DNA from: an uncultured Gemmatimonadota bacterium
GTDB lineage: Bacteria > JAAXHH01
Length of the DNA: 64,000 bases
Reading direction: 5' to 3'
Assembly: GCA_951812955.1 (NCBI GenBank)
Contig: OX638340.1
Coordinates: 2,304,001-2,368,000 of the forward strand
This document shows, piece by piece, positions 127-31,146 of this stretch (positions are counted from its first letter, which is position 1; each line of letters opens with the position of its first letter). Position numbers and translations under genes: made by a program. The notes beneath the pieces were generated by a model, which saw only the letters and a program-made list of their open reading frames with translations, did no database searches and had not been told where the DNA came from.

Positions 127-237
127 CCAAACCAACTTGTAGGGGGAAATGACGAAAAGAGATGGAACCTGCTTTAACAGATCCAGGTAATGCCTGCAAC
201 CTACCCTTATTCGCGGCCACAGTCAAACAAAAGCGGC

Positions 238-2610: not shown

Positions 2611-2779
2611 GATCGTTTTGCCTCCTGTCGCTTACGAGCTGTAAGCCGGAAAACGTTCCTGAGGAAACACGATCTTGGAATGGCAAAGGGGATCTACGGT
2701 TTCGACCCGTCGATCCCCTGAAAAGTTGCATGTTGGTAACTATTGCGATGCCGGAACTTACGTAGTGCATTCCCGACTG

Positions 2780-4463: not shown

Positions 4464-5057
4464 TCATGCACGCAGGCCCTTCATACTCTCCCGGGCCGCT
4501 TCGAGGGTCCGGTCGATGTCTTCTTCGGTATGGGCCAGGGACACAAACCCCGTTTCAAGGCGCGAAGGCGCCAGGTAGACGCCCCGGTCCAGCATATTCC
4601 AGAAGTATCGCCCGTACGTATCCGCGTCTGACGTGGAAGCTGCATCGAAATTGTTGACGGTCTGATCTGTGAAGAAGGTACACATCATGGAGCCCACACG
4701 GGTCAGGCAGGCCGGGACGCCGGCCGCTTCCGCCGCGGCGCGAAGGCCGTCGCCGAGGCGGGCGGCCAGGGATTCCAGCCGGTCGTAGACCCCGGGTTCC
4801 TGAAGCTGCCGCACCGTTTCATATCCAGCGGTCATGGCAAGCGGATTGCCGGACAGCGTGCCGGCCTGGTAAACCTCACCGGCGGGCGCCACGGTTTCCA
4901 TGAACTTTTCCTGGTCGAATAGCGCACGTCCCGCTTCCAGGGGAGTCCGCTGGCCGGTTTCAGCGACTGTATCATCTGCGGTGGATTGGGCCTGGAGGCG
5001 ACCCTGCATGAGAAAAACGAGCAGGACCGCTACCAGAAGTACAGGGTATCTGGTCAT
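4464..5057 (-). pseudogene. Chimeric duplication-junction ORF: signal peptide of the small secreted protein fused in frame to the C-terminal 145 aa of glutamate-1-semialdehyde aminomutase (hemL fragment)
   Basis: Residues METVAPAGEVYQAGTLSGNPL...ESMKGLRA are identical to the C-terminus of hemL at 9855..11144. The N-terminal 50 aa matches the ORF at 1..126. Similarity to unit 2 stops abruptly at ~4903. Confidence 0.6.
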
Positions 5058-5169
5058 GGCAAACCAACTCGTAGGGGGAAATGACGGAAAGAAATGGAAC
5101 CTGCTTTAACATATGCAGGTAATGCCTGCAACCTACCCTTATTCGCGGCCTCAGTCAAACAAATGCGGC

Positions 5170-7541
5170 CTACTCGCTCCGCAGGGTGTCCGCCGGGTTG
5201 AGCATAGCGCTTCGGAAAGTATGCACGCTCACGGTGAGCAGGGCGGTGGCCAGGACAACTAGTCCCGCCGCGACGAAAGGCGCAGCACCGATCTCCGTCC
5301 GGTAGGCGAAGTCCGCCAGCCACTCGTTCATGAGCCACCAGGCGGCCGGCCAGGCCAGGACGTTGCCGATCACCACGAGGACGACGAACTGCCTCGACAG
5401 CAGGCCGACTATATCTGAGACCGCGGCGCCCATCACCTTGCGGATGCCGACTTCCCGCGTGCGGCGCGCGATGTCCAGCGACACGAGTCCATATACGCCG
5501 AGGCAGGCGATCAGCAGGGCGAATACCGCGGAATAGGTGAAAATCAGCGCCAGGTTGTTCTCATCCTGGTAGAACCGTTCTATATCGTCTTCCATGAAGA
5601 AATACTCGTAGGGCGTCTCAGGCGCTGTCCCCTTCCACGCGTCCTCGAGCAGGGAAAGCGTGGTTGGCAGATCCCTGCCGCTGACCCGGACCAGGAGGAA
5701 GCCGTAACTGACCGAAGTGTTACCCATGGATGTGGGATTGAGGGAGAGTATAATCGGATCGATCTCCTGGTGCAGCGACTGGAAATGGAAGTCCTTGACT
5801 ACGCCGATTACCGTATACCCATGGGGCAGTTTGCGCCCGATCGGATCTTCCCATTCCAGCTTCTTTGCCGCGGCCTCGTTGATGATGCACGATTGGAACT
5901 CGTCGTTTACGAATTCGCTGGAAAAATCACGGCCACGGACGAGGTTCAGTTCAAGCGTCTCCAGGTAATCGCGGTCCACGGTCGCCATGAACGCTTCCAG
6001 CTTGTTTCCGTCCGGTCGGTGTAGGCAACCTGGGGCAAGAAATGCCCCTGACCAAAGGTGCTGGAAGTGCCGGAAACCAGGAGTATGTCTTCGTACGGTA
6101 TCACTTTGCTGCGAAAGATCTCCAGGTCGTTTGAATTGAAGGGGGCCTGGATGACTACCACGTTGTGCGGGTTGAACCCCAAATCCCCCGTCCGCACAAA
6201 GTCCAGCTGCCGGGTCATGATGAGAATTGAAATGACGAGCAACGCGGACAACCCGAACTGCACGACCATCAAGCCGCGCACGAAGAGATTCGGCCCTCCG
6301 ATCTGAACCTGTTGCCGGAAGATGGTGACGGGGTTGTAGTGTGAGAGCACCAGGGAAGGATAACTGCCGGAAACCAGGGCGACCAGCACGGTCAAACCCG
6401 TCAGCGCGGCCAGCGTGGATCCGTTCGTCAGGTAGTCCAGCACGAGGGACTTTCCCGCCAGCATATTGAAAACCGGAAGGAACAGGTGGGCCAGGGCCAC
6501 GCTCAGCACCAGGGCGAAGCAGCACAGCGCCGCGGTTTCGCCCAAGTGCTGTCCCATGATCTGGGTTCGGCGCGCGCCGTAAACTTTCCTGACACCGACC
6601 TCTTTCACACGCGAAGACGAACGGCAGACGGCCAGGTTCATGAAGTTGACGCAGGCGATGAATAGTACGAGCAGCGCCGTGCAAATCAGGATGTAGGACC
6701 GGTTGGGATCGCTGGTGGGACCCAGCCCGAATTTGACTTCCTGATCCAGGTAGATATCGGTGATGGGTTGCAGGATCAGATAGGGCGACGAGTAGGCCGG
6801 GAAATGGGTTTCGACGAATTCCGGCAGTTGACTGAGGAGCGATTCTACTCGATCCGGATCCCCGAGTTCGATGAAAGTGGCCGTGGACGAATAGTTCCAC
6901 TTTCCGATGGCATTCGATATCCAGGGGTTTATTTCCGGCGCCTTGTCAAAGGGTATGAGCAGGTCGAACCGAATACTGGAGTTATCCGGTCCGTTCTCCG
7001 CGACGCCGGTTACGGTCAGCGGAATGCCCTGTACCAGGAGCGTCCTGCCCGTCGGAGACTCCTGGCCGAAGTACTTCGCCGCGGCGGATTTGCTGACGAC
7101 CACTGAATTCGCCTCGCCGAGGGCCGTACCGGGATCGCCTTCGATCATCGTGAAGGAGAACATCTCGAAGAAGGACGGATCGCAGAAAAGGGCGTTCTCC
7201 TTGCGGAACGTATCTTCTCCGATGCGAATATCGGATGGATATTCCGTTATGCGCACGGTCCGGACCACGTCGGGATATTGCTGCTCCAGGGTAGCCGCGA
7301 GCGGGAGGGGAGTTCTCGCGCTTATGAACGGGTTGTCGTCGAAATCCACTCCACCGGCTGCGACCTGGTAGATCCGGTCCGATTTCTCGTGGAAGGCGTC
7401 GTAGGTCCACTCGTGGCGGACGAAGAGAAAGATCAGGAGGCAGCACGCGATACCGGTCGACAGGCCAAAAGTATTGATGAAGAAATAACCCTTGTTGGCG
7501 AACAGGTACCGCAACGCGATGACGAGGTTGTTTTTCACCAT
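5170..7541 (-). pseudogene. Second copy of the FtsX/MacB-like ABC permease, apparently frameshifted (two overlapping ORFs 5946..7541 and 5170..6900)
   Basis: The N-terminal 531-aa ORF and the C-terminal 576-aa ORF together align to the 790-aa permease at 238..2610. The reading frame is lost around 6010-6030, where ...AYTDR(T)ETSW in this copy replaces AYTDKDGNKLE in copy 1, consistent with a 1-bp indel. This could be a genuine pseudogene or a sequencing error. Confidence 0.55.
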
Positions 7542-7708
7542 GATCGTATTGCCTCCTGTCGCTTACGCATGCAAGCAGGAAAACGCACCTGGGGAAAGAC
7601 GATCCTGCAATGGCAAAGGGGATCTACGGTTTCGACCCGTCGATCCCCTTAAAGGTTGCATGTTGGTAACTATTGCGATTGGGAACTTACGTTGTGCATT
7701 CCTGACTG

Positions 7709-9772
7709 TCAGGGGATGACAAACGTATTCTCACTACGGCGAAAACTCCTATCATCGTCAAGCGAAATATCACCAACCAGTCTATACTCACCGGCGACTT
7801 CCGGATTGTATGGGCAAGCGTCGAATTCCACCCGTGTGTCCTCGATGTCTTCCCATGTACTGCCCATATCGTCGCTTCGCTGCCATACGGAGTAATGGAC
7901 CGTAATGGTGACACCTAACGGAGTTGGGCGGTTGTTTAGTTCTCCACCTAAGAGTGAACTTGCGCAGTTTACTATAGGTATTGTAGCAAGTCCTGGGACC
8001 GTAAAAACCAACCGACCGGGCTCGACCCGCACACCTTCCCACGGGACGTAGGTGACTTCATCCACCGTAATGGTCACCGTGATGCTCACCATGGCCGACA
8101 CGTCGCCGGACGCGGCCGTAACTTCGGTCATGCCGTTGCCCACAGCTTCTACCAACCCATCCTCGTCCACGGTGACCACGTTCTCGTCACCGCTCGTCCA
8201 CGTGACGGCCGGTTCGGCAATGGCATTGTCGTTCCCGTCGCTGACGGAAACCATGAGTTGCAGGGTCTGTTCGATCTCGGTCAGCGTGGTGGCATCGGGT
8301 GCGACCTCGATGCTGATGCCGGCCGGAACCTGGGCGACGGTGATCGACGCAGTCCCCATAGCGCCTCCGGCCTGGGCCGTGATCTCCGCCATGCCGTTGT
8401 CCACCGCGGTGACCACGCCGTTCTCGTCCACGGTGGCCACGGCGTCGTCGCCGCTCGACCAGGTCACCATCACGTCCTCCATCGCGTTTTCGTGCTGGTC
8501 CAGTACGACGGCCGCGAGTTCCACGGTGTCGCCGATCGCTCCCAGCGTGTGCGCGGCTGGCTCGATCGTGATGCTCGTTGCCACGGGCTCGGATATCACC
8601 ATGACCGTGATACTCACCATGGCCGATACGTCGCCGGATGCGGCCGTAACTGCGGCCATGCCGTTCCCCACCGCTTCTACCAAACCATCCTCGTCCACGG
8701 TGGCCACGTTTTCGTCACCGCTCGTCCACGTGACGGCCGGTTCGGCAATGGCATTGTCGTTCCCGTCGCTGACGGAAACCATGAGTTGCAGGGTCTGTTC
8801 GATCTCGGTCAGCGTGGTGGCATCGGGTGCGACCTCGATGCTGATGCCGGCCGGAACCTGGGCGACGGTGATCGACGCAGTCCCCATAGCGTCTCCGGCC
8901 TGTGCCGTGATCTCCGCCATGCCGTTGTCCACCGCGGTCACAAGCCCGTTCTCGTCCACGGTGGCCACGGCGTCATCGGCGCTTGACCAGGTCACCATCA
9001 CGTCCTCCATCGCGTTTTCGTGCTGGTCCAGCACGACGGCCGCGAGTTCCACGGTGTCGCCGATCGCTTCCAGCGTGTGCGCAGCGGGCTCGATCGTCAG
9101 GCTCGTCGGCACGGATACGGATACCGTGATGGACGCACTGGCGGACAGGCTGCCGGATGTGGCCGTGATCTCAGCCATCCCGTTACTCACCGCCGTTACA
9201 AGGCCCGCCCCGCTCACGGTCGCCACGGCGTCGTCGCCGCTCGACCAGGTGATGGACTGGCCGGACATGATGTTGTTCCGCTGATCCCGCACCGTAGCCG
9301 ACAACTGTACCGTTTCCCCGATCGCCTTCAGCGTATGGGACGTCGGTGCGACCGTGATCCGGGTCGGCACCGGCTCGGCCACCGTGATGTTCGCAGTGCC
9401 CGTCGCGTTGCCGGACTGCGCCCTTATTTGCGCGGCGCCGTTGGCCACGGCCGTCACCAGGCCATTTCCGCTGACAGTCGCCACCGCGGTATTGCTGCTC
9501 GACCAAGTCACCGCCTGGCCGGTCATCGGATTGTTGTTCTGGTCCCTCACCATGGCCATCAGTTGCACGGTCGCGCCAATCGTCGCCAGCGTGTGCGAAG
9601 ACGGCGTGACAGAAATGCTCGTCGCAACGGGCGCAGGCGGTGGAGCAGGCGGGGTCGGTGTGGACGGCTCGGGACTCGTCGGGCTGCTGTCCCCGCCACC
9701 GCATCCCGCCAGAAAAACCAGGTACAAGGATGCCGTGATCTTGGCGAACACGCGACTGTATGGACCAAACAC
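7709..9772 (-). CDS. Surface lipoprotein with 6 Big-2 repeats (paralogue of 2780..4381; 687 aa)
   Basis: The N-terminal ~380 aa are identical to copy 1. There are two extra Big-2 repeats (an internal tandem duplication of repeats 3-4). The C-terminal domain is diverged from copy 1 and the Gly/Glu linker is absent. Confidence 0.8.
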   Translation of the reverse strand: MFGPYSRVFAKITASLYLVFLAGCGGGDSSPTSPEPSTPTPPAPPPAPVATSISVTPSSHTLATIGATVQLMAMVRDQNNNPMTGQAVTWSSSNTAVATVSGNGLVTAVANGAAQIRAQSGNATGTANITVAEPVPTRITVAPTSHTLKAIGETVQLSATVRDQRNNIMSGQSITWSSGDDAVATVSGAGLVTAVSNGMAEITATSGSLSASASITVSVSVPTSLTIEPAAHTLEAIGDTVELAAVVLDQHENAMEDVMVTWSSADDAVATVDENGLVTAVDNGMAEITAQAGDAMGTASITVAQVPAGISIEVAPDATTLTEIEQTLQLMVSVSDGNDNAIAEPAVTWTSGDENVATVDEDGLVEAVGNGMAAVTAASGDVSAMVSITVMVISEPVATSITIEPAAHTLGAIGDTVELAAVVLDQHENAMEDVMVTWSSGDDAVATVDENGVVTAVDNGMAEITAQAGGAMGTASITVAQVPAGISIEVAPDATTLTEIEQTLQLMVSVSDGNDNAIAEPAVTWTSGDENVVTVDEDGLVEAVGNGMTEVTAASGDVSAMVSITVTITVDEVTYVPWEGVRVEPGRLVFTVPGLATIPIVNCASSLLGGELNNRPTPLGVTITVHYSVWQRSDDMGSTWEDIEDTRVEFDACPYNPEVAGEYRLVGDISLDDDRSFRRSENTFVIP

Positions 9773-19545: not shown

Positions 19546-19862
19546 ATTCACGTCGCATTCGAAATACAAACTACACCCTCGGCCGTGACAATTAAACAGC
19601 GAATGATAAAAACATCCGGTTCACGGTCGCGCGGGCAGCCGTAACAGGCCGTTCGCGGGCAGGCCTTCAGTGGCCTGTACACGGGAAGGCCGTAACTGCC
19701 CGTGACAGGCCGATACTGGCAATTATCGGGCATGTCCCACCTGTTCCCGTCGTGCGGCCAACAGTCTTTTCTCTTTTGTTAAATCATAGTATTACGTATA
19801 AAGAACGTTCCAGTCCTATCTTGACTCATCGTACGCCCCTGGCTGTCAAACGGCAGTTTCTC

Positions 19863-20792
19863 ATGGCACCCACTGAACATATGGAAAGCACGGACAGCGC
19901 CGGATCGCATCGCGCAGGCTTCGTCGCCCTGGTCGGGAAACCGAATGTGGGCAAGTCCACCCTGATGAACGCGTTCCTTCAGCACCGGCTTTCCATCGTC
20001 ACCCCCAGGCCCCAGACCACCCGTCAACGGGTGCTTGGCATTCTGACGAAGGATACCTGCCAGGTCCTGATCCTGGATACGCCCGGGTTGCTCGAACCCG
20101 GCTACCGGCTCCAGGAATACATGCTGCAGTCCGCGGTCCATACGCTGCACGACTCCGATGCGGCCGTGGCCATCGTCGACGCCACCCGTTTCGAACGCGA
20201 TCTCGACGACCGCGTCGTCGGGTTCCTCGAGCATAGCCGCGGACCGGTGATCCTGGCCATAAACAAAATCGACAGGGCATCCAGAACTTCCCTGCTTCCC
20301 ATGATCGACCGGGCCGCAGGCCGTTTCCCCTTTGCCGAGATCGTACCCGTGTCCGCCCTCAAGGGAGACGGTCTCGACCCTTTGCTCTCCGCCGTCATCC
20401 GCCTGCTCCCATCCGGGCCGGCACTGTATCCCGCCGACATGCTCACCGATCAACCGGAACGGTTCTTCGTGGGTGAAATCATCCGGGAGCACCTGTTTCT
20501 GGCCCTGCACGAGGAACTGCCCTACGCATCGGCCGTGATCGTGGAGGACTTCACGGACCGGCCCAACGGCACAGCCTTCATACAGGCGGGTATCATTATC
20601 GAGCGGACATCCCAGAAGGGCATCATCATCGGCAGGAACGGCCGCATGCTGAAGCGCATCGGCACGTCCGCGAGGAAGGCAATCGTCGAATTCCTCGACC
20701 GTCCCGTCTATCTCGACCTGCGGGTCAAGGTCAGGCCGTCCTGGCGTAAGAAAGAACAGGATCTGAAGCGTCTGGGCTACACCACGAGGTGA
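19863..20792 (+). CDS. era: GTPase Era
   Basis: G1 motif GKPNVGKS, then TTR and DTPG motifs. The C-terminal KH domain is present (...GIIIGRNGRMLKRIG...). The start was chosen at the internal ATG (MAPTEH...) rather than the track start at 19752. Confidence 0.9.
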   Translation: MAPTEHMESTDSAGSHRAGFVALVGKPNVGKSTLMNAFLQHRLSIVTPRPQTTRQRVLGILTKDTCQVLILDTPGLLEPGYRLQEYMLQSAVHTLHDSDAAVAIVDATRFERDLDDRVVGFLEHSRGPVILAINKIDRASRTSLLPMIDRAAGRFPFAEIVPVSALKGDGLDPLLSAVIRLLPSGPALYPADMLTDQPERFFVGEIIREHLFLALHEELPYASAVIVEDFTDRPNGTAFIQAGIIIERTSQKGIIIGRNGRMLKRIGTSARKAIVEFLDRPVYLDLRVKVRPSWRKKEQDLKRLGYTTR

Positions 20793-20856
20793 GCGTCGCC
20801 GAGGCGAGCATCTGGGCTACACCGCGAGGTGAGTGTCGCCGAGGTGAGCGTCGCCG
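20771..20856. repeat. Tandem degenerate duplication of the era 3' end (~40-bp unit x2 plus a partial unit) including the stop codon
   Basis: tctgggctacaccacgaggtgagcgtcgccgaggcgagca is followed by tctgggctacaccgcgaggtgagtgtcgccgaggtgagcg tcgccg. The first unit encodes ...LGYTTR* and the second ...LGYTAR*. Confidence 0.75.
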
Positions 20857-20858
20857 CA

Positions 20859-20877
20859 GGGACCTTAAACCGGTCCC
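20859..20877. terminator. Short hairpin (gggacc-ttaaacc-ggtccc) between convergent era and the phosphotransferase gene
   Basis: Visible 6-bp inverted repeat. No clear U-tract. It overlaps the stop codon of the minus-strand gene. Confidence 0.3.
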
Positions 20878-21953
20878 CGCAGCGCTGTGCCTAGTCTCTT
20901 GCCGGCGAGCCCGGCGTACCGTTCCAGATCCTCCCACAACGCCTCCAGCGGCCGGAGTTCGTTCCAGGGCCGGACTGCCTGACGGTCGTATCCTTCGATC
21001 AGGGACAGGATCCGCACGCACCACTGCACGGGCAGGATGGCTTGGTATACGTCCATCTTCTCGAAGGCGTGGGGATCGGCGCTTTTTTCGCAGTAAACCG
21101 CGATCATCTCTTCCCGCAAACCAGACGCCAGCGCCGCGCTCTCCGGATGCCAGAAAAAACCGGCGATCTCGTAAAAAGGGTCCATGATCCCCGCGTGTTC
21201 CCAGTCTACCAGCCCGACGACGTCCCGTTCCGCCTTGATCACATTGGCCGGCCGTAAATCTCCATGACACAGGCGTGGCGGGGCATCTGCCCATAACGCG
21301 GGCTGCAGGTCCGCCATGGCCAGGCACCGCCTCAGGTCGAGCAACCTGTCCACGGTCCGGCAGAAAGACGGATCGTTCATGGCGGGCGATGCGGACATGG
21401 CGCGCATTGTCTCGTCCATATACGCGAGGCAGTCAGCGGGACGGGACGGCCCCGCCGGTGGGGCCAGTAAGGGATCTCCGGGATCCCTATGGCCATGCAC
21501 CGCGACCGCGATTCCGAGGAGCAGGGCCAGGTCCTCCCTGGTCATGCTTGCGGGTACCACCGCCGACCCCGGTAGTTTATCGTAGATCAGCACGGGGGCG
21601 TTCAGAACCGCTGCCAAGGAATCCGCAAAAACGGCATTCGGCACTTCTTCCAGGCTGGCAAGCCGGGTCAACGCCGCAAACTCCCGTTCGAGGCGCCGTG
21701 CGCGATCACCCGGATATACCTTAAGGAGAAAGATGCCTGCGGATGTATCTACTTCGTATATAAGGTTGTTGAATCCGCCGGCCAGAGACCGGACACGGCG
21801 TGGGCCCATGGCGAACCCGTGCCCTTCCTCGGCCAGCCGCCGGAGGTAGCGCGATACGGCCGCCAGGTCCGCGGACTCACCTTCACGGAGCGGCGGCGTT
21901 CCCCGATCGTCCCTGGATTCAGTCATCATCGAGCGATACATAGGACGATACAT
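20865..21953 (-). CDS. Phosphotransferase enzyme family protein (aminoglycoside/choline-kinase-like, APH fold)
   Basis: Kinase-like catalytic loop HGDLRPANVI. Brenner-type motif context LVDWEHAG. Confidence 0.7.
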   Translation of the reverse strand: MYRPMYRSMMTESRDDRGTPPLREGESADLAAVSRYLRRLAEEGHGFAMGPRRVRSLAGGFNNLIYEVDTSAGIFLLKVYPGDRARRLEREFAALTRLASLEEVPNAVFADSLAAVLNAPVLIYDKLPGSAVVPASMTREDLALLLGIAVAVHGHRDPGDPLLAPPAGPSRPADCLAYMDETMRAMSASPAMNDPSFCRTVDRLLDLRRCLAMADLQPALWADAPPRLCHGDLRPANVIKAERDVVGLVDWEHAGIMDPFYEIAGFFWHPESAALASGLREEMIAVYCEKSADPHAFEKMDVYQAILPVQWCVRILSLIEGYDRQAVRPWNELRPLEALWEDLERYAGLAGKRLGTALRGPV

Positions 21954-22109
21954 GACCGGCTGTTCCCTCCTGGCCTTTTCCGATTGCCCGCGGGTCTGCC
22001 CGTTCGTATCTTCATTACTCGGAACCCATCATCCGGCGCACCCCGGAACACAGGTTTCCGAGTGTCCCGTTCCACGTCCGGCTCATCCCTTATACCGGTG
22101 TGATGCAAG

Positions 22110-23012
22110 ATGAAACCCCTTTGCCGGCTCCGGTTTGCCGCAAAGAACCTGTCCCGGTACCTGTCGCTCCTGTCGCTCAGACAGGCCACCGCGTCGATCT
22201 CCGTCCTGCTGCTGACGACCCTGGGTTGCGGAAGCGCCTTCCAGAATATCAACGTCCTCAGCGAGTCGGATGAAATAGCGCTCGGCCGCGAGTTTTCGAG
22301 AGAAATCGAAAGAGAGATCAAACTGTTCACGGACCCGGAGGTGGTCCGCTACGTCGACGAACTGGGGCAGACCCTCGTCCGGCATTCCAAACGGTCCAAT
22401 TTACAATACTACATAAAAGTCGTGGATACGGATGAAGTCAACGCCTTTGCCCTTCCCGGCGGCTTTCTCTATGTCAATCGGGGCCTCATCTCCTTAGCGA
22501 ACACCGAATCGGAACTGGCGGGGGTGATCTCCCACGAAATCGGGCACGTGGTGGGGCGTCACGGCGCCAAGGCCCTGACCCGGCAACTCGGGCTGGAGAT
22601 CGTGCTGGGCATGATATCGGGAAGGAACTCCACCGGCGTCCAGCGCGTCGCTTCGCAACTGGCGGGAATCGGCGGCATCCTCTCCATGTTGCACTACTCC
22701 CGGGAAGCGGAACGGGAAGCGGACGCCCTAGCGGTCGAGAACCTCCGGGAGGCCGGCTACGATCCCGATGGCGTCTCGGCGTTCTTCGAGAAGCTCCTGG
22801 AAATCAACGACCGTGAACCCGGCGCGCTGGCCCTGCTGTTCTCGACTCATCCACCGAGCAGGGAACGCATCGATCAAACCAGGAAACAGATCGCCGGACT
22901 ACCGGTCCTGGACGGACTGATTACCGATTCGGAACGGTTTCATCAGATCAAGAGCCGGCTGCCGCCGCTTAAGAAGAACCCGCTGGACAATGAAGTACCA
23001 ACTGGACAATAA
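22110..23012 (+). CDS. M48-family zinc metallopeptidase (HtpX/BepA-like), lipoprotein
   Basis: HEIGHVVGRHG (HExxH) zinc motif. The signal/lipobox LLLTTLGCGSA is present. Confidence 0.85.
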   Translation: MKPLCRLRFAAKNLSRYLSLLSLRQATASISVLLLTTLGCGSAFQNINVLSESDEIALGREFSREIEREIKLFTDPEVVRYVDELGQTLVRHSKRSNLQYYIKVVDTDEVNAFALPGGFLYVNRGLISLANTESELAGVISHEIGHVVGRHGAKALTRQLGLEIVLGMISGRNSTGVQRVASQLAGIGGILSMLHYSREAEREADALAVENLREAGYDPDGVSAFFEKLLEINDREPGALALLFSTHPPSRERIDQTRKQIAGLPVLDGLITDSERFHQIKSRLPPLKKNPLDNEVPTGQ

Positions 23013-23050: not shown

Positions 23051-24244
23051 ATGCCGCCATCAAACCTCGAAAACAGCCCTGGCCTCCTCCTGCGTGGGGG
23101 GACCGTCGTGGACCCGTCGCAGGATCTGAACCGGGTATGCGATGTCTCCATTTGCGGCGGTTCGATTTCGGCCGTAGGCGACGGCCTGCCAGTGGAGGGC
23201 CGACGCGTCCTCGACGTATCCGGCCGCTACGTCTTTCCCGGACTGGTCGACCTGCACGCCCACATCTGCTGGGGATTCACCGACATCGGCCTGGTTCCCG
23301 ACGACGTCTGTCCCTCCACCGGCGTAACCGCTATCGTGGACGCCGGAAGCTCTAGCTGGCCCAGCCAGGAGGCCTTCCGCCGCAACGTTGCGGAACCTTC
23401 CAGGACCCGGGTTTTCGGCTTCTCCAACATCTCGAGCGTGGGCATCCCGACGGCGGGCACTCCCGAACTGGCCAGCCTGCGGTTCGTGGACGTGGACCGT
23501 TCCGTGACCGCCGTAGCCGGCAATCGGGACCTGATGACCGGTATCAAGGTAAGACAGGGCCGGCACCTGGTGGGCGACAATGGCGTCGAGCCGACGCGCC
23601 TGGCGGTAGAGGCCGCCGAACAGCTCGGCGTCCCGGTCATGGTCCACGTGGGCAATACGCCGTGTCCCCTCGGCGGCATTATGGACCTGCTTCGGCCAGG
23701 CGACATCATCACGCACGCCTATCACGGCCATCCCCACGGCATTCTGGACGACCACCGGGCCATTTGGGAGGACGTCATCGAGGGACGTTCCCGGGGCATC
23801 CTGATGGACGTGGGACACGGCGCAGGCAGTTTCAGCTTCGACGTGGCCAAAGCGGCCTTCGAGCGGGGGTTCTTCCCGGACGCCATCAGCACGGACCTGT
23901 ACACCGTAAACGTCAATGGCCCGGTTTTCGACTTGCCGACCACCATGTCCAAGATGCTTAACCTGGGCATGCCCCTCACGGACATCGTGGAGAGTACGAC
24001 CACCATACCGGCCGCGGCGATCGGGCGCACGGAACTCGGCACGCTCCGGCCGGGCGCGTCGGCCGACGTGGCGGTCTTCGTAAAGGAGGAGGGCGAGTTC
24101 GAATTCACCGATTCGCACGGGGAACGCCGGATATGGCCGCGGCGCCTGGCCTGTGAAATGACCCTGCTGGACGGGGAGATCGTATTTGACCGGGAACGAT
24201 CCGCACGTCCGTCATTGGACGTCAACAACGGGGAAAACGCGTAA
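23051..24244 (+). CDS. Amidohydrolase-family metal-dependent hydrolase (dihydroorotase/deacylase-like)
   Basis: Metal-binding signature VDLHAHICWG early in the sequence. A later His/Asp pattern is typical of the amidohydrolase superfamily. Confidence 0.7.
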   Translation: MPPSNLENSPGLLLRGGTVVDPSQDLNRVCDVSICGGSISAVGDGLPVEGRRVLDVSGRYVFPGLVDLHAHICWGFTDIGLVPDDVCPSTGVTAIVDAGSSSWPSQEAFRRNVAEPSRTRVFGFSNISSVGIPTAGTPELASLRFVDVDRSVTAVAGNRDLMTGIKVRQGRHLVGDNGVEPTRLAVEAAEQLGVPVMVHVGNTPCPLGGIMDLLRPGDIITHAYHGHPHGILDDHRAIWEDVIEGRSRGILMDVGHGAGSFSFDVAKAAFERGFFPDAISTDLYTVNVNGPVFDLPTTMSKMLNLGMPLTDIVESTTTIPAAAIGRTELGTLRPGASADVAVFVKEEGEFEFTDSHGERRIWPRRLACEMTLLDGEIVFDRERSARPSLDVNNGENA

Positions 24245-24879
24245 TGAAAACCAGATACTGGGTGGGCGGTTGTCTATCCGCGATCATTCTGCTCGCCGTA
24301 ATCGCAGGCGCAACCTACTATTTTCTCCTCCAGGCGAGCGATGAACTGGTCGAGACTTACACGAGTCCGGAGCCCCGCGATTTCTCCCGCACTGAGTCCC
24401 GTGTAGAGAAGGGTCGGGAAGAAGCGCTGTCGGCAATCGAACGGTTCAGGGATTTCATCTTTGCGCTTGAGACGGGCGAAGATACCGAAAGCTTTTCGCT
24501 GTCTGCGGACGATATCAATGCCCTCCTCGAGCAAGAGGATCTGTTCAAAGAAATCCACGGGATGGCGCGCGTGGACATCCAGGATGACAAGCTTCAGGCC
24601 GAGATCAGCGTGCCCCTCGGCTTGTTCAACGATCGATTCGAAGGCCAATACCTGAACGGTACAGGCGAACTCTCCATCGAGATGAAGGACGACCGGCTGG
24701 AGGTCACCATCGACCGGCTGGAGGTCGGCGGCAGAGACATTCCTGCAGAATTCATGAATGAAATCCGTAAAAACAACCTGGTGGAAACCCTGTACCGGGA
24801 GCCGGCTCTGGATCGATTTCTACAAATGGTGAAGGACGTGAAGATCGAAGACGGCCGGCTCGTTATCCAACCCAGGTAG
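24244..24879 (+). CDS. Hypothetical N-terminally membrane-anchored protein
   Basis: Single N-terminal TM helix (WVGGCLSAIILLAVIAGATYYFLL). The start overlaps the preceding stop codon (taATGa). Confidence 0.5.
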   Translation: MKTRYWVGGCLSAIILLAVIAGATYYFLLQASDELVETYTSPEPRDFSRTESRVEKGREEALSAIERFRDFIFALETGEDTESFSLSADDINALLEQEDLFKEIHGMARVDIQDDKLQAEISVPLGLFNDRFEGQYLNGTGELSIEMKDDRLEVTIDRLEVGGRDIPAEFMNEIRKNNLVETLYREPALDRFLQMVKDVKIEDGRLVIQPR

Positions 24880-24911
24880 GATCCGGACCCTCGCGCCGTG
24901 GAAACAACGCC

Positions 24912-25757
24912 ATGCCCATCCTCCTCGCCATCGCCCTGCACGCGGAAGCGCGGCCTGTGATCGAGCGATTCCGATTGAAGCAGGACGCATCCTTCGACCT
25001 GCCCGTTTTCCGGCGGGACGAGGTCTGGCTTACCGTGACCGGTACGGGACGCATGAAGTCCGCCATCGCGACCACCTGCCTGGTCACCCGGATTGAAAGA
25101 GATGAGCGAACGGTCATCTTCAACCTCGGCGTCGCCGGCCATACGCAGAAGGCGGAGGAGGGACCCGTCAAGGTCGGGGACCGGTTCCTCGCGAACAAGA
25201 TCACGGAGCAAAGCACCGGCCGATCCTTCTATCCCGACCTGCTGGCGAGGACGCCCCTGGCGGAATCCGCGGTCACGACCGTGGAACGTCCCCTGGACCG
25301 GGCGGACGCCGGCGCCGTCGAGCCGGGCCTGGCCGACATGGAAGCGGCCGGATTCTTCCAGGCGGCGGCGACCTTCCTCCCGCCCCACCGGATCGGCTGC
25401 GTCAAGGTCGTTTCCGACCACCTGGAAACGAGACGCTTCGACAAGGACTGGATAAGTGAACTGATCGCGGGATCCCTGGACGATTTCGAGGCAGCGATCG
25501 CGGCTTACAGGACGATCTCCGACGGGGAACCGGACGCGTTGACCGACGCGGACGTGCGCGTCGTGGAAGACATCCGCGACCGGCTGCGACTGACGGCCAG
25601 CCGGCACCGGATGCTGTCCGACCTGGTGCGGTCTTACAAGCTACACACCGGCTCGGACCTGCCTGACCTCACACGGATCTCCCAGGTCTCCGTCAAGACG
25701 AAACAGGAAGGCGATGCAGAATTTGAAAGACTACGCGGCATCCTCTCGGTGGAATAA
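24912..25757 (+). CDS. PNP/UDP-1 family nucleosidase (MTA/SAH nucleosidase or futalosine hydrolase-like)
   Basis: Collinear with E. coli MTAN motif blocks: IGAMEEE to ILLAIALHAEARP, GIGKVAAA to GTGRMKSAIA, INTGSAGG to FNLGVAGH, VEMEATA to ADMEAAG, VRAISD to VKVVSD. Confidence 0.6.
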   Translation: MPILLAIALHAEARPVIERFRLKQDASFDLPVFRRDEVWLTVTGTGRMKSAIATTCLVTRIERDERTVIFNLGVAGHTQKAEEGPVKVGDRFLANKITEQSTGRSFYPDLLARTPLAESAVTTVERPLDRADAGAVEPGLADMEAAGFFQAAATFLPPHRIGCVKVVSDHLETRRFDKDWISELIAGSLDDFEAAIAAYRTISDGEPDALTDADVRVVEDIRDRLRLTASRHRMLSDLVRSYKLHTGSDLPDLTRISQVSVKTKQEGDAEFERLRGILSVE

Positions 25758-26754
25758 CTTCTCCCACCTCTATGTCGAGCGCGGCGCAGACGAATACTCG
25801 CTCACCCGGCGCATACGGGATCGTTTTTCGAAAGCCCGCGTGGTGGAGATCGACGACTACAAGGCGGTCTTCGCCCGGCCGCGTCAGCGGTTCCAGGCAC
25901 AAAAGGAGACCATGAAACTGATCCTGGCCGTGAAGAAGGACCGGTTCCTGTACGAAGGGTCGGGGAACAGCCAGAACTTCAACCTCGAGGATTTCTACTA
26001 CAACACGCTTATGTTCAATTGCGTGTACAACTGCGACTACTGCTACCTGCAGGGCATGTATCCATCGGCGAATATCGTGGTTTTCGTGAACCTGGAGGAC
26101 TACTTTAAGGCGACGCGCAGGGCCATACGCGAGAGGTCGAACCCCTCGCAGCCGTTTTACCTGTGTATCTCTTACGACACCGACCTGCTCGCTTTCGAGT
26201 CGGTCGTGCCCTATTGCCGCGCCTGGATAGAATTCGCCCGCGAGGAGCCGGACCTGCTCGTTGAAATCCGTACCAAGAGCGCCGCGTACCGCGCCATCGG
26301 GGACCTGTCGCCTTCAGAACGCGTCATCCTGGCGTGGACCCTGTCCCCCGAACCGGTCGCCGCACGCTTCGAACACGGGACGGCGCCGCTCAATCAGAGG
26401 CTGGACGCCGCCCGGTCGGCCATTGACGACGGCTGGCCGGTCCGTCTCTGCTTCGACCCGGTCCTCGCCGTTCCGTCCTGGGAGTCCGTTTACGGAGACC
26501 TGGTCGAGGAGGTCGTCCGGCGGATCGAGCCGGCCGCCGTTCGAGACGTGACCGTGGGCGTCTTCCGATTGTCGAAGATCCATTATCAGCGCATGAGACG
26601 TTTGCGGCGGGATACGCCGCTTCTGTACGACGAATACGTACAGGAGGGCACGACCGTGACCTACACGGCCGAACGGCGGGAGGAGATGACCGCCTTCATG
26701 CGGCAGCGCCTGGGAGACCACTTCGAAGAGGAGCGAATCGTCACATGGACGTAG
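25714..26754 (+). CDS. Radical SAM protein, SPL (spore photoproduct lyase)/COG1533-like family
   Basis: C-x3-C-x2-C motif in the family-typical context FNCVYNCDYCYLQG. Length is ~346 aa. It overlaps the upstream gene by ~44 bp and the downstream SDR by ~10 bp, which suggests an operon. Confidence 0.7.
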   Translation: MQNLKDYAASSRWNNFSHLYVERGADEYSLTRRIRDRFSKARVVEIDDYKAVFARPRQRFQAQKETMKLILAVKKDRFLYEGSGNSQNFNLEDFYYNTLMFNCVYNCDYCYLQGMYPSANIVVFVNLEDYFKATRRAIRERSNPSQPFYLCISYDTDLLAFESVVPYCRAWIEFAREEPDLLVEIRTKSAAYRAIGDLSPSERVILAWTLSPEPVAARFEHGTAPLNQRLDAARSAIDDGWPVRLCFDPVLAVPSWESVYGDLVEEVVRRIEPAAVRDVTVGVFRLSKIHYQRMRRLRRDTPLLYDEYVQEGTTVTYTAERREEMTAFMRQRLGDHFEEERIVTWT

Positions 26755-27464
26755 CACTGGTCACCGGCGCTTCATCCGGAATCGGCCTGGCCATCGCCGC
26801 GCGCCTGGTCGAGTCGGGCTACAACGTATACGGGTATGCCCGCGACCACGGGAAGACCTCCTACCGCCACGCCCGGTACAAACCCGTCGAATGTGACGTG
26901 ACCGATACCCGGGTGCTGCTGGATCGCACCGAGGATTTGCTCAAGGAAACCGGGGGACTGAAGGTCCTGGTCAACAACGCCGGTGTGGGGTTCTTCGGTC
27001 CCCATGCCACCATGGCGCCCGGGCGGATAGAAACCATGGTGCGGACCAACCTGATCGCGCCCATGGTCCTGACCCGGGCGACCCTGCGGCACCTGGAGGC
27101 CTCGCGGGGGTATGTCGTCAACATCGCTTCCACCGCCGCGTTGAATCCCGGTCCCTTCGGCGCGGCCTACGGCGCCACGAAGGCCGGCCTCCACCAGTTC
27201 GGCCAGGCGCTCTTCAGCGAGGTGCGGAAGAGCGGCGTCCGGGTGGTGACCCTGTACCCGGACATGACACGGACGCCGTTTTACGACGGGGCCGACTTCG
27301 AACCCGGCGAGGAACCCGGCACCCACATCACGCCCGAGTGCGTGGCCGACGCCGTTGCACAGGCCGTGGACCAGCGGGAGGGGACGGTGATCACGCAGAT
27401 CGTCATCAGGCCTCAGCGGACGCAAGTCGTCCGCAAGGGAAAGCCGCGGCGGGAGAAGGATTAA
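26745..27464 (+). CDS. SDR-family short-chain dehydrogenase/reductase
   Basis: Cofactor motif TGASSGIGLAIA. Catalytic YxxxK is present (YGATKAG). Confidence 0.9.
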   Translation: MDVALVTGASSGIGLAIAARLVESGYNVYGYARDHGKTSYRHARYKPVECDVTDTRVLLDRTEDLLKETGGLKVLVNNAGVGFFGPHATMAPGRIETMVRTNLIAPMVLTRATLRHLEASRGYVVNIASTAALNPGPFGAAYGATKAGLHQFGQALFSEVRKSGVRVVTLYPDMTRTPFYDGADFEPGEEPGTHITPECVADAVAQAVDQREGTVITQIVIRPQRTQVVRKGKPRREKD

Positions 27465-27575: not shown

Positions 27576-27632
27576 TGTTTTGGCACATGAATGAATTGCC
27601 CATCCGGTAGCTCATTTGCGAAAGGAACATTC

Positions 27633-28445
27633 ATGCCCTACATATCCTCCCTCCACGTCTATCCCATCAAGTCCTGCGCCGGACACGAGGTAAATCGGGC
27701 GGAGCTTGACGCCCGGGGGATCCTCTACGACCGGTCGTGGATCGTCGTCGGCAGTGGCGGCGGAATGCTCACCCAGCGCGACACGCCCGCCCTGGCGCTC
27801 GTTCGGCCTGCCGTGGAAAACGGCGGGCTGGTCCTTTCGGCACCGGGGATGGAGGACCTCGCGGTGCCGCGAACCGAGGAGGGCAATATACGGAACGTGG
27901 AAGTATGGGGAGATGCCTGCGACGGGATCGACCAGGGCGACGACGCGGCGGACTGGTTCAGCTCGTACCTAGACACTGCCAGCCGCCTGCTGTATTTCAA
28001 ACCGGGCTTCGTGCGTCCCGTAGACCCGGATTACGCGACCCGGCCAGGCGACCAGGTGGGCTTCGCGGACGGCTTTCCGCTGTTGATGATCTCCGAAGCC
28101 TCCCTGGCGGACCTGAATGCGCGGCTCGCATCGCCTGTCCGCATGAACCGCTTCAGACCCAATGTCGTCGTGGCAGACTGTCCGCCCTACGCGGAGGACA
28201 CGTGGAAGCACGTTCGCGCAGGGAACCTGGAACTCGACCTGGTAAAACCCTGCGGCCGGTGCGCCACGATCCTAGTGGAGCAGGAGAGCGGGACACCGGG
28301 CAAGGAACCGCTGCGCACGCTGGCGACCTACCGCAAACTCGGTCGGCCAACCCCGTCTTTCGGCCATAACGCCGTGCACCGGTCGCCCGGCGTGTTGGAA
28401 GCGGGCATGGCCATTCAGATTCTCGACATGCGGCAGAGCGCATAA
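27633..28445 (+). CDS. MOSC domain-containing protein (YcbX-like)
   Basis: MOSC N-terminal beta-barrel start MPYISSLHVYPIKSC. The conserved C-terminal cysteine context KPCGRCA is present. Confidence 0.8.
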   Translation: MPYISSLHVYPIKSCAGHEVNRAELDARGILYDRSWIVVGSGGGMLTQRDTPALALVRPAVENGGLVLSAPGMEDLAVPRTEEGNIRNVEVWGDACDGIDQGDDAADWFSSYLDTASRLLYFKPGFVRPVDPDYATRPGDQVGFADGFPLLMISEASLADLNARLASPVRMNRFRPNVVVADCPPYAEDTWKHVRAGNLELDLVKPCGRCATILVEQESGTPGKEPLRTLATYRKLGRPTPSFGHNAVHRSPGVLEAGMAIQILDMRQSA

Positions 28446-28465
28446 TAGTCAAGGAGGAGGACCCT

Positions 28466-29911
28466 TTGAGTCAGCGTGTAATCGCCATGCCGGCCGGCCG
28501 TTGCGATCTGGGCTTCGCACGGATCGATATCACCCCGCCCGAGGGGATATACCACCGCAGCTGGGGCGCGGCGAAGCATGACGCGTCCACGGGCGCACAC
28601 CGGGAACTGACCGCTTCCGCGCTGGTCTTCGTGGATCCCGGTTCGGGGGTGGAACACGCCCTCGTCGTCCTCGAACTGGGCTGGCTGCAGGCCGTCGACC
28701 TGCAGCGTCTTTCGGATACCGTCTCTTCCGGTTCGGGCCTGCCCGCCGAACGCGTCGTCATCACCTTCTCCCATACCCACGCCGCGGGCAACTACGATCC
28801 GGATCGACTGGAGCACGAGGGCGGCGCGCTGATCCCGGGATACCTGGACGAACTCGGCAAGGGACTGGCCGGCCTCGTGGAAGATGCCAGGGCCGCCGTG
28901 CTGCCGGTCGACCTGGCCTTCGGGCTCGGCCGCTGCGACCTGGCGTTTAACCGTGACTACTGGGACGCGGAAAACCGGCTGTATGCCTGCGGGACCAACC
29001 CGGAACGAGCCGCCGACGACACGGTCGTGGTCACGCGCGCCAGCGACCGGGAAGGCGGGTTGGTCGTCACCCTCGTCAACTATGGCTGCCATCCCACGAC
29101 CCTGGCCTGGGACAATACGCTGATCAGCCCCGACTACCCCGGCGCCATGCGGGAGGTCGTGGAACGGGAAACCGGCGCGCCCTGCGTGTTCATGCTGGGC
29201 GCAAGCGGCGATCTCGGTCCGCGGTACGGGTTCGTGGGCGAAACGGCGGCGGCGGACCGGAACGGCCGTCAGCTGGGCTATGCCGCGCTGTCGGCCATGG
29301 AGTCCCTGCTGCCTGACGGCTCAGAAATGCATTACGACGGCCCCGTGATATCGGGCGCCACCATAGGGGTCTGGCTACACAGCCCCATGGATGCCGGACG
29401 CGCCCGGCGGCTCGAAACCTTCGACTCCTCCGTGATGACGCTGGACCTGCCCCTGCTGGACCTGCCCACGCAGGCGGAACTGGACCGGCAGCTTGCCGAA
29501 TGGATGTCCCGCGAAGAAACCGCCAGGCGGGACGGGCGAAACCGGGAAGCCGCCGATTGTCGCGCCCGCATTGAACGGGTTCGGCGGACCATGCGGCGCG
29601 TCGAAAGCATTCCGCCGGACAGAAAGTCCGCCCCCTACGGTGTCACGCTCTGGCGCATCGGCGAAAGCGTCCTCGTGCTGGTCAGCGGCGAACCCTACAG
29701 CGTGTTCCAGCGCGAACTCAGGGCGCGCTTTCCGGCTACCGCCATCGTCGTGGTCGTCCTGTGCAACAGGGGAACGGGCGGTTACCTGCTGCCCGCGGAC
29801 GACTACGGCAAGGGCCTCTACCAGGAAGAGGCCGCGTCGATCGGTCCGGGCGGGCTCGAAGCGGCGACCGACGCGATTGCGCGGCAGCTTGCAGCCTGGG
29901 GCCTGAAGTAG
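28466..29911 (+). CDS. Hypothetical hydrolase, possibly neutral/alkaline ceramidase-like
   Basis: The N-terminal pattern GFARIDITPPEG resembles the neutral ceramidase N-domain. The assignment is weak. Confidence 0.35.
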   Translation: MSQRVIAMPAGRCDLGFARIDITPPEGIYHRSWGAAKHDASTGAHRELTASALVFVDPGSGVEHALVVLELGWLQAVDLQRLSDTVSSGSGLPAERVVITFSHTHAAGNYDPDRLEHEGGALIPGYLDELGKGLAGLVEDARAAVLPVDLAFGLGRCDLAFNRDYWDAENRLYACGTNPERAADDTVVVTRASDREGGLVVTLVNYGCHPTTLAWDNTLISPDYPGAMREVVERETGAPCVFMLGASGDLGPRYGFVGETAAADRNGRQLGYAALSAMESLLPDGSEMHYDGPVISGATIGVWLHSPMDAGRARRLETFDSSVMTLDLPLLDLPTQAELDRQLAEWMSREETARRDGRNREAADCRARIERVRRTMRRVESIPPDRKSAPYGVTLWRIGESVLVLVSGEPYSVFQRELRARFPATAIVVVVLCNRGTGGYLLPADDYGKGLYQEEAASIGPGGLEAATDAIARQLAAWGLK

Positions 29912-30003
29912 CAGGATGCCCGTCCCCGAGGGCGTCTACGGCCGGGACGGGGCGCAACCAATCGGAACCTGGAACAGGATGCAGATCAGACAGGAGCGGT
30001 GAC

Positions 30004-31146
30004 ATGGCAGCAGGCAACACGGTAGAAGGCAACACGGCAGAAGGCAACATGACAACAGGCAACTTACGTATCGGGCTCATCGGGCTCGGAACGGTGTGCG
30101 AATACGTGCATTACCCTGGGTTCTCCCGTATTCCGGGCGTGGAAATCGCCGGGCTGTGCGAGGTGGACGGGGATCTGCTGGCCCGCAGACAGGCACAGTG
30201 GGGCGTCGCGGATGGTTTCACGGACGTGGACCGGTTCCTGGCCACCGTCAAACCGGACGCCGTGGCCGTCGCCGTGCCGAACGTGTATCACCGCGATATC
30301 GTGATTAAATCCGTCGAGGCGGGTTGTCACGTGCTCTGTGAAAAACCCATCGGCATGACCGTAGCGGAGACCGTGGATATGTACGTATCCGCCAGAAACG
30401 CAGGCGTTCGCCACATGACCGCCTTTACCTACCGGTTCGTACCGGGCATGCGCTACCTGAAGCACCTGGTCGACGAAGGGCAACTCGGCGAGATACGCCA
30501 CGCGCGCTTCCAGCGCCTCCAGGACTGGGGCGAACATTCCGTGGGATGGCGCCAGTACCGGCGCATGGCCGCCACGGGGGAACTCGGGGACATGGGCATA
30601 CACCGCATCGACTTCGCCGAGGACCTGCTCGGTCCGATCAAGTCGGTGTGCGCGTCACTGAAGCAGGTCATTCCCCGGGACCGGACGGAGGACGGAAGGC
30701 CCTGCGAACCGCAGGACGTGGAGGACTGGGTCGCCTGGATCGCCGAATTCGAATCGGGGACCACGGGCGTATTCGAGATGGGAAAACTGACCAAGGGCCA
30801 CGGGCCCGGGGGTGATCACGACATCTGCGAGTTGAACGGGACCATCGGATCCGCCGCCTACCGGCTTCACACGCCCTGTGCCATCCTGGCCGGTCCGCGC
30901 CGCGCCAGATACCGGAGACGCCGTGTGCCTGCGGGCTTCCTCACCGTGCCCGGTTCTCCCCGCGACCCGAAAGAAGGCGATCCTGCACAGACTTTTCGTT
31001 TCGACCAGGCCTGGGAGTTCGTCTGTGCCATCCGCGAGGAACGGGACTGCGTGCCTTCCTTCTACCACGGCATGCGCGCACAGGTCGTCGCGGAGGCTAT
31101 CCTCGAGGCGGCCGAGTCCCGGAGGTGGGTGGACGTGCCGGCTTGA
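30004..31146 (+). CDS. Gfo/Idh/MocA-family NAD(P)-dependent oxidoreductase
   Basis: Rossmann N-terminus LRIGLIGLGTV...YVHYPGF. The conserved EKP motif is present (VLCEKPIGMT). The start was chosen at the ATG with an aggagc SD 7 nt upstream. The N-terminal residues (GNTVEGNTAEGNMTTGN) are encoded by 15-bp tandem repeats. Confidence 0.8.
   Translation: MAAGNTVEGNTAEGNMTTGNLRIGLIGLGTVCEYVHYPGFSRIPGVEIAGLCEVDGDLLARRQAQWGVADGFTDVDRFLATVKPDAVAVAVPNVYHRDIVIKSVEAGCHVLCEKPIGMTVAETVDMYVSARNAGVRHMTAFTYRFVPGMRYLKHLVDEGQLGEIRHARFQRLQDWGEHSVGWRQYRRMAATGELGDMGIHRIDFAEDLLGPIKSVCASLKQVIPRDRTEDGRPCEPQDVEDWVAWIAEFESGTTGVFEMGKLTKGHGPGGDHDICELNGTIGSAAYRLHTPCAILAGPRRARYRRRRVPAGFLTVPGSPRDPKEGDPAQTFRFDQAWEFVCAIREERDCVPSFYHGMRAQVVAEAILEAAESRRWVDVPA

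Follow-up and report, generated by a model that had tools for sequence, protein, structure and literature searches.

To our knowledge, only two nucleosidases of the PNP_UDP_1 superfamily are dedicated to a step catalysed by a radical S-adenosylmethionine (SAM) enzyme, namely HpnG and MqnB, and in both cases the nucleosidase acts on a product that carries the adenosyl group and not on 5'-deoxyadenosine in free form. HpnG removes the adenine from the product of HpnH, and a glycosyltransferase of family 2 (GT2), HpnI, follows (PMC13459092). Spore photoproduct lyase (SPL) holds the dihydrothymine of its lesion with Arg193 and Glu268, and its reaction is the abstraction of a hydrogen atom and not an addition of the adenosyl radical (PMC3467042); hydrogen abstraction as in SPL has been proposed by analogy for gp53 of phage M6 (PMC8989533). 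The stretch of DNA analysed here, in the following referred to as the window, comprises 64,000 nucleotides (nt) of contig OX638340.1 from an uncultured Gemmatimonadota bacterium, which its closest relatives place with Gemmatimonadota or Latescibacterota, and carries three overlapping genes, C, D and E, for a nucleosidase with the fold of 5'-methylthioadenosine/S-adenosylhomocysteine nucleosidase (MTAN), an SPL-fold radical SAM enzyme and a short-chain dehydrogenase/reductase (SDR). The module formed by C and D is real and very widespread, and its members are mis-annotated; a putative function is proposed for it below. Public records list D as 'DNA photolyase', 'spore photoproduct lyase' or 'SPL family radical SAM protein' and C as 'phosphorylase' or 'MTAN family protein'. 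No paper describing the pairing was found in the literature and, as far as our tools and the literature show, this module is undescribed so far, whereas the type to which it would belong, a radical SAM enzyme with a dedicated nucleosidase, is already known.

A gene pair conserved across phyla

The genes A to E are five open reading frames (ORFs) from a six-frame ORF list of the window (Table 1). An earlier interpretation, made from the DNA letters alone (the sequence-only reading), had noticed overlaps of 10-44 bp among C, D and E, and these are confirmed at the same positions, with 44 nt shared by C and D and 10 nt by D and E. The ORF list and the alignment of D homologues reveal that the conserved core of D (FSHLY, from residue 16) starts directly at the stop codon of C. 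Any usable start of D must therefore abut or overlap C, and the junction between the two genes is no artefact of start choice.

To follow the module beyond the window, 80 loci were retrieved by means of the D homologue alignment alone, on contigs representing one genome per species. They cover about ten phyla and derive from Gemmatimonadota/Latescibacterota, Zixibacteria, many Opitutales and other Verrucomicrobiota, Lentisphaeria, Bacteroidota including Balneolales, Marinimicrobia, Leptospira, Spirochaetales, Bdellovibrionales, Vulcanimicrobiota and the clostridia Thermobrachium and Caloramator. With a C-family profile, a member was detected in 79 of the 80 loci. With starts set to the longest ORF, C lies directly upstream of D, overlapping it or at most 5 nt away, in 71 of these 79 loci and at most 200 nt away in six; it is displaced in the remaining two, in one of them (L054) by an ABC-F gene. 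Orthologues of E (E-values 1e-28 to 1e-152, mean identity 46%) stand directly downstream of D in 41 of the 80 loci, belonging to many phyla, and most of these 41 show a D/E overlap of 10 nt or 4 nt. Pairwise distances among C proteins follow those among D proteins closely (r=0.90), and the same holds for E against D (r=0.82), while D is much better conserved across the loci than C (mean identity 49% and 32%, respectively).

The arrangement C-D-E is thus not due to chance, and E, although an ordinary classical SDR, represents an orthologous group that travels with D. The sequence-only reading had expected all three genes to be co-conserved; this expectation is borne out for C and D, and only in part for E. 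The conserved unit is C-D, with E in about half of the loci, and the genes A and B are lineage-specific neighbours. All-against-all clustering of the neighbours in the 80 loci gave no other widespread partner besides C, D and E. A and B, which have one base in common (TGATG), show the start/stop coupling that had also been pointed out before. Nevertheless, they were rejected as parts of the module, since together with an M48 peptidase, a MOSC protein and a ceramidase-like protein they are common to just the 11-12 closest relatives and reflect local synteny.

The two families are large. An exhaustive search with a hidden Markov model yielded at least 2432 cluster representatives (50% identity) of the C family at E<=1e-30, spanning Leptospira, Verrucomicrobiota, Bacteroidota, Marinimicrobia, Gemmatimonadota and Clostridia, and more than 2208 homologues of D were found. 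Gene fusions of C, which would have revealed a complex, were absent among the best 150 of 6660 matches, and each of these 150 has 267-325 amino acids (aa). Long ORFs in L018, L021 and L028 were considered as fusions and rejected as start-calling artefacts without an extra domain. Similarly, the SDR ORF after D in Candidatus Moanabacter (L016, 8990-10288) has 432 aa, the C-terminal ~230 residues of which lack a Pfam match, and it may be either a fusion or an artefact of start/stop calling.

A distant branch with 29-31% identity retains the C-D pair with a 4-nt overlap. Its loci (L082, 5138-7826; L083, 309-2997; L086, 1271-2906) carry a gene for a GT2 glycosyltransferase that is start/stop-coupled upstream of C, and no SDR gene downstream. 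In L086, the GT2 gene in turn overlaps a gene for diaminopimelate decarboxylase.

Table 1. Coordinates of the genes, overlaps and key residues of the locus (positions in the window; residue counts refer to 213 members of the C family and 193 of the D family)
Feature	Position	Strand	Description
A	23051-24244	+	397 aa; amidohydrolase; PRK09237-type metallohydrolase, 417 bits, above cut-off (NCBIfam)
B	24244-24879	+	211 aa; hydrophobic helix at the N-terminus; without family match
C	24912-25757	+	281 aa; MTAN-like nucleosidase; residues ~1-175 MTAN-fold purine nucleosidase domain, 178-278 family-specific helical domain (4-5 helices)
D	25714-26754	+	346 aa; SPL-fold radical SAM enzyme; distinct, highly conserved subfamily
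E	26745-27464	+	239 aa; classical SDR
C/D overlap	25714-25757	+	44 nt; 3' end of C over 5' end of D; taken as translational coupling
D/E overlap	26745-26754	+	10 nt; 3' end of D over 5' end of E
C, Glu12 codon	24945-24947	+	corresponds to water-activating Glu12 of E. coli MTAN (hhalign register); Glu 213/213
C, Met143-Glu144 codons	25338-25343	+	DMEAAG motif; corresponds to MTAN Met173-Glu174, binding the ribose 2',3'-OH (pairwise alignment); Met 209/213, Glu 213/213
C, Ser168-Asp169 codons	25413-25418	+	KVVSDH motif; corresponds to MTAN Ser196-Asp197, general acid on purine N7 (pairwise alignment); Ser 204/213, Asp 213/213
D, CxxxCxxC cluster motif	26020-26043	+	C103 V Y N C107 D Y C110; all three Cys invariant (193/193) and aligned with SPL C90/C94/C97

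The enzymes encoded by C, D and E

The AlphaFold2 (AF2) model of C (predicted local distance difference test, pLDDT, 89) consists of an alpha/beta domain (residues 1 to ~175) followed by four to five helices (178-278). Its best Foldseek matches are MTANs and futalosine hydrolases (4bmx; CT263, 4qaq), at an E-value of 3e-13 and a template-modelling score (TMt) of 0.70, and C shares with MtnN the PNP_UDP_1/nucleoside phosphorylase-I fold. Residue counts among 213 non-identical family members show that the catalytic Glu/Glu/Asp of MTAN is retained in every one of them (Table 1). The MTAN-like nature that had been assigned to C from the sequence is therefore upheld as regards fold and catalytic residues. 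As a family assignment it has to be narrowed, because none of the curated models for MTAN or MqnB comes near its cut-off with C: the scores are 18.9 bits against NF004079 (MtnN; cut-off 169) and 16.4 bits against NF006087 (MqnB; cut-off 213). The match to PNP_UDP_1 is weak as well (19.5 bits, below cut-off). The best NCBIfam match, the futalosine hydrolase model TIGR03664, is likewise weak (32.2 bits, cut-off 124.7), and the HpnG model of the same collection gave no match to C at E<0.01. Judged by these profile scores, C stands outside the curated MTAN, MqnB and PRK05634 families; it belongs to a separate, large family that is distinguished by an additional domain.

Two further features set C apart. 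About 30 residues are missing between the VGD strand and the DMEA motif, and secondary-structure mapping suggests that they correspond to helix alpha3 of MTAN, between strands beta6 and beta8. In addition, the loop of residues 100-116 bears a motif of the family, (T/S)G(R/K)xFYPD, in which R/K104 occurs in 193, Pro108 in 208 and D/E109 in 210 of the 213 members. By the same kind of mapping on the model, this loop would correspond to the one lining the 5'-alkylthio pocket of MTAN. In that case, a polar 5'-substituent would suit its conserved charges better than would the methyl group that 5'-deoxyadenosine has there.

D is related to SPL over its full length. Its AF2 model (pLDDT 93.5) matches SPL (4rh0/4fhc) in Foldseek at an E-value of 6e-23 and a TM-score of 0.82 with 22% identity, followed only by generic radical SAM cores, and Pfam SPL is matched with 77 bits. 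The view of D as an SPL-type radical SAM enzyme from outside sporulation thus agrees with both searches. Among 193 sequences of the D family, the residues equivalent to those that bind SAM in SPL (Tyr96, Ser142/Asp143, Lys174, Ser195) are Y109, T156/D157, K188 and T209; Y109, D157 and K188 are invariant, T156 is found in 191 and T209 in 176 sequences, the rest of the latter having Ser. By contrast, the lesion-binding Arg193 of SPL is replaced by Ala207 (184/193) and Glu268 by Gly282 (193/193). The position of the hydrogen donor Cys140 is occupied by C in 121, A in 45, S in 19, P in six and G in two sequences, and that of Tyr98 by Y in 170 and F in 23 (12%). The family possesses an invariant Cys246 of its own and ~40 further invariant residues of its own. 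Taken together, these residue patterns characterise D as an SPL-fold enzyme that would act on a different and very constant substrate. Since the relay by which SPL regenerates SAM is not kept, SAM is probably consumed stoichiometrically by D, which would leave an adenosyl product at each turnover.

The names that D bears in public records and its full-length SPL fold could be taken to mean that D mends an ultraviolet (UV) or radical lesion of DNA like SPL, with C and E as helpers. A gene for a HTH-WYL-WCX regulator and one for a HIRAN-domain protein, divergent from the C-D-E operon of Tepidibacillus sp. LV47 (L084, 4167-5857), are the sole hint of a link to DNA damage, in one genome only. DNA repair, which the sequence-only reading had entertained, is nevertheless highly improbable and finds no support in the data, as the residues that hold the lesion are replaced and the hydrogen-donor Cys is not conserved. 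With 85.1 bits against TIGR04070 (cut-off 400) and 62.5 bits against TIGR03886 (cut-off 437), D lies well below the SPL equivalogs, and it is near neutral rather than strongly basic (isoelectric point 6.2 for the protein of the window, median net charge +2 for the family). In the literature, the 'splB' genes under LexA control are members of the Rv2578c/COG1533 family (PMC3323433, PMC4951493), to whose model NF038135 D scores just 17.7 bits (cut-off 430). SOS regulation was rejected, since five LexA-box patterns gave just two isolated matches in the regions upstream of C in 78 loci. Finally, a hydrolase of free nucleosides and an SDR would have no obvious role on DNA, and the neighbours are metabolic. 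The evidence thus argues against the names 'DNA photolyase' and 'spore photoproduct lyase' for D.

E displays the motifs TGASSGIG, NNAG and YGATK of classical SDRs and matches Pfam adh_short with 143 bits. An Arg after strand beta2 suggests a preference for NADP(H), and among solved structures, an NADP-type metagenomic SDR and clavaldehyde dehydrogenase come closest; these nearest relatives include an aldehyde reductase.

Possible reactions and genomic surroundings

The most robust element of our interpretation, and one that we regard as probable, concerns C, whose target would be the adenosyl moiety arising from the cleavage of SAM by D. Beyond this core, we tentatively favour a scheme by analogy to HpnH/HpnG and MqnE/MqnB, in which C would process a SAM-derived 5'-adenosyl product of D and E would then act on the resulting ribosyl product. 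The analysis establishes the folds, the catalytic residues, the coupling and co-inheritance of the genes and the absence of SPL's lesion-binding residues; we infer an adenosylation by D rather than a hydrogen abstraction, the order of the steps, the part of E and all that concerns the substrate, here called X. D would cleave SAM reductively, and the 5'-deoxyadenosyl radical would end covalently on X (radical adenosylation). C would strip the adenine from adenosyl-X to give 5-X-5-deoxyribose, C1 of which E, probably with NADPH, would reduce or oxidise; a GT2 glycosyltransferase may take the accessory position of E in the distant branch.

We prefer product processing for four reasons: a tight C-D pairing across phyla is what a substrate-product relation would predict, both precedents (HpnG and MqnB) process the adenosylated product, the charged loop of C argues for a polar 5'-substituent, and the accessory enzymes act on sugars or carbonyls. 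Indeed, both the SDR and the GT2 enzyme are sugar or carbonyl enzymes, which fits the proposed scheme. Structures of the MqnE/MqnB precedent, 6xi9 and 4bmx, are among the Foldseek matches of D and C, respectively.

Alternatively, D could abstract hydrogen and release 5'-deoxyadenosine, in which case C would be a dedicated and perhaps docked nucleosidase that relieves the inhibition, and E would convert the toxic 5-deoxyribose to 5-deoxyribitol. This disposal of a by-product, proposed by the sequence-only reading, is chemically coherent and possible, but in our estimation rather unlikely. In its favour, enzymes of the SPL fold are known to abstract hydrogen, C retains the complete catalytic set of MTAN, and the probable loss of the SPL relay in D would entail a release of 5'-deoxyadenosine with each turnover. 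MTANs cleave 5'-deoxyadenosine, relieve the inhibition that it causes and are needed in vivo for radical SAM enzymes, and a conversion of 5-deoxyribose to 5-deoxyribitol, reported in rats, would give E a role (PMC6079011). The known routes, however, employ a housekeeping MTAN or MTAP followed by kinase, isomerase and aldolase. Moreover, the genomes carry many other radical SAM enzymes (e.g. the adjacent MiaB), so that a private nucleosidase for D alone, in 79 of 80 loci, would be unexplained. We know of no dedicated by-product nucleosidase that is tied to a single radical SAM enzyme. Disposal would likewise leave the charged loop motif of C and the GT2 partner of the distant branch without a role, and E, which would complete it, is absent from half of the loci. 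It is the pairing, the charged loop and the GT2 enzyme that favour product processing as the better-supported explanation.

The genes for RNA modification that adjoin the module in some lineages raise another possibility. A bona fide MiaB gene (458 bits) follows C-D in 11 Opitutales loci (including L016, 10735-12150, and L025, 9276-10673), a GluQRS gene overlaps the end of the SDR gene in L066 (9673-10596), and RlmD precedes C in Thermobrachium (L053, 5760-7112). This adjacency may reflect synteny or may point to a connection with modified nucleosides. Under a salvage pathway of the QueK/QueL kind, C would act on a nucleoside or nucleotide from RNA turnover and free its modified adenine-type base, D would cut off the substituent and E would reduce a carbonyl or imine fragment. 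Such a pair of nucleoside hydrolase and radical-enzyme lyase exists for queuosine (PMC11130926, PMC11570991), the characterised SPL-fold enzymes (SPL and gp53 of phage M6) act on substituents of nucleobases, the RNA-modification genes are arranged in an operon-like manner, and a 5'-phosphate could find a binding partner in the conserved Arg/Lys of the loop presumed to line the 5'-pocket of C. We nonetheless consider salvage unlikely. An MTAN-type catalytic set is typical of 5'-deoxy- and 5'-thioadenosines, not of ordinary nucleosides, and QueK belongs to the IUNH family (IPR023186), not to PNP_UDP_1 (PMC11130926). No transporter is a conserved neighbour in the 80 loci, each of the RNA-modification neighbours is restricted to one lineage and may reflect plain synteny, and the GT2 partner would be unexplained.

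Several points weigh against product processing by C, and they should be seen together. An adenosylation would be new for the SPL fold, given that SPL abstracts hydrogen and gp53 is proposed to do likewise, and the same reaction presumably holds for QueL. There is no name for the substrate X, and E is absent next to D in 39 of the 80 loci. The position of R/K104 in the pocket is presumed from secondary-structure mapping, not from an inspected superposition. Finally, the RNA-modification neighbours MiaB, GluQRS and RlmD fit a recycling of nucleosides at least as well.

The most specific version of the preferred scheme, in which the SPL fold was recruited for radical adenosylation, is accordingly put forward as a speculative proposal. 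D would add the 5'-deoxyadenosyl radical to an sp2 centre, either in a common metabolite or in a nucleobase, C, docked to D by means of its unique helical domain, would remove the adenine, and E would reduce the sugar. If true, an unseen family of C5-polyol-extended (ribityl- or ribosyl-linked) metabolites would exist in thousands of bacterial lineages, and adenosylation chemistry would have had an additional independent origin after MqnE, HpnH and ArsS.

SPL-like radical SAM enzymes outside of spore formers are a large blind spot of annotation, and the pairing of C and D turns this unknown into a defined and testable system of two or three proteins. Should C process an adenosylated product, a new type of pathway and a new reaction for the SPL fold would emerge; should it merely clear 5'-deoxyadenosine, it would be the first nucleosidase known to be devoted to the by-product of one particular radical SAM enzyme. 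In both cases, thousands of annotations would be corrected.

When 44 operon-like neighbours were classified by Pfam, just small, lineage-limited groups of metabolic or housekeeping genes emerged, such as an EutQ-like cupin (cupin_3) in Marinimicrobia, a glyoxalase/methylmalonyl-CoA epimerase in Bacteroidota and a HAD phosphatase. A CN_hydrolase of the nitrilase superfamily adjoins the module in two unrelated lineages: it is YafV/omega-amidase-like and located downstream of E in Leptospira (L063, 9808-10647; L073; L080), and located upstream of C in L013 (6376-7146) and L015 (3404-4171). A role in anti-phage defence was rejected because B, C, D and E have no PADLOC match, as was a phage or mobile origin, with only five relatives, 22-23% identical, among 2.9 million viral contigs. 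Rfam searches of the window and of eight diverse loci returned no family, neither riboswitch nor leader; a sigma-70-like promoter was likewise not found, and terminator-like sites did not exceed the expectation from shuffled sequences.

The flanks of the locus (19752-23012 and 27591-31146) consist of ordinary genes that are common to close relatives only. Upstream are an ORF for an Era-like GTPase (identified from its translation only), an APH-family kinase gene on the minus strand (20865-21953) and a gene for a BepA-like M48 peptidase (22110-23012); downstream follow a MOSC_N+MOSC protein, the true start of which is likely near 27633, and a weakly ceramidase-like protein (28466-29911). Farther away, positions 1-3500 and 4933-8400 represent a direct duplication of ~4.9 kb with 71-97% identity, of which an extra 300-nt copy is present at 8598-8897. 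ARAGORN reports three identical 93-nt 'tRNA-Gly(ccc)' genes inside these copies (3335-3427, 8198-8290 and 8726-8818). Since Rfam finds no tRNA anywhere in the window, the three calls are probably false and lie within repeated, probably coding DNA.

Comparison with known systems

With SPL (SplB, TIGR04070, 4fhc) D has in common the fold over its whole length (TM 0.82), the cluster motif CxxxCxYCY and the SAM-binding residues. The two differ in that they are only 22% identical, that D has neither the lesion-binding Arg and Glu nor the conserved relay of Cys140 and Tyr98 and possesses an invariant Cys246 of its own, and that D occurs mostly in organisms that do not form spores and is nearly always paired with a nucleosidase (79/80 loci). 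C, in turn, departs from MtnN/Pfs by the absence of ~30 residues, a helical C-terminal domain of 100 residues, the charged (T/S)G(R/K)xFYPD loop and its genomic tie to one radical SAM enzyme.

The queuosine hydrolase QueK and the radical queuine lyase QueL (YP_001088187.1) resemble the module as a two-step route composed of a nucleoside hydrolase and a radical enzyme (PMC11130926, PMC11570991), QueL being compared here by its description. QueK, however, has the fold of the IUNH family, and QueK/QueL cluster with QueT/ECF transporters, none of which is conserved at C-D.

A likeness in reaction logic is offered by MqnE and MqnB, the aminofutalosine synthase and futalosine hydrolase of the futalosine route to menaquinone. 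Here the substrate first receives the 5'-deoxyadenosyl radical, and its purine is then split off by a hydrolase of the MTAN fold; 4bmx and 4qaq, as mentioned, are among the best matches of C. D matches MqnE at the level of generic radical SAM enzymes (Foldseek E ~1e-3, TM 0.4), C reaches 32 bits where 124.7 are required, and the mqn genes MqnA/C/D/E are absent from the conserved or operon-like neighbours of the 80 loci, a survey of neighbourhoods and not of whole genomes.

HpnH and HpnG, finally, which build the side chain of hopanoids (bacteriohopanepolyols), consist of a radical SAM enzyme encoded together with a dedicated enzyme of the PNP_UDP_1 superfamily that removes the adenine from its product; mutants in hpnG accumulate adenosylhopane. 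Reduction of the ribosyl group and a GT2 enzyme, HpnI, follow (PMC13459092), so that the gene content matches both C-D-E and the GT2-C-D arrangement of the distant branch. The differences are that HpnH does not have the SPL fold, that C carries the extra helical domain and is without a match to HpnG, and that neither a squalene-hopene cyclase nor other hpn genes are among the conserved neighbours in the 80 loci; moreover, an adenosylation like that of HpnH is for D an inferred reaction only. The logic that we propose for D, C and E would thus be the same as that of HpnH, HpnG and HpnI and of MqnE and MqnB, realised on unrelated enzyme lineages.

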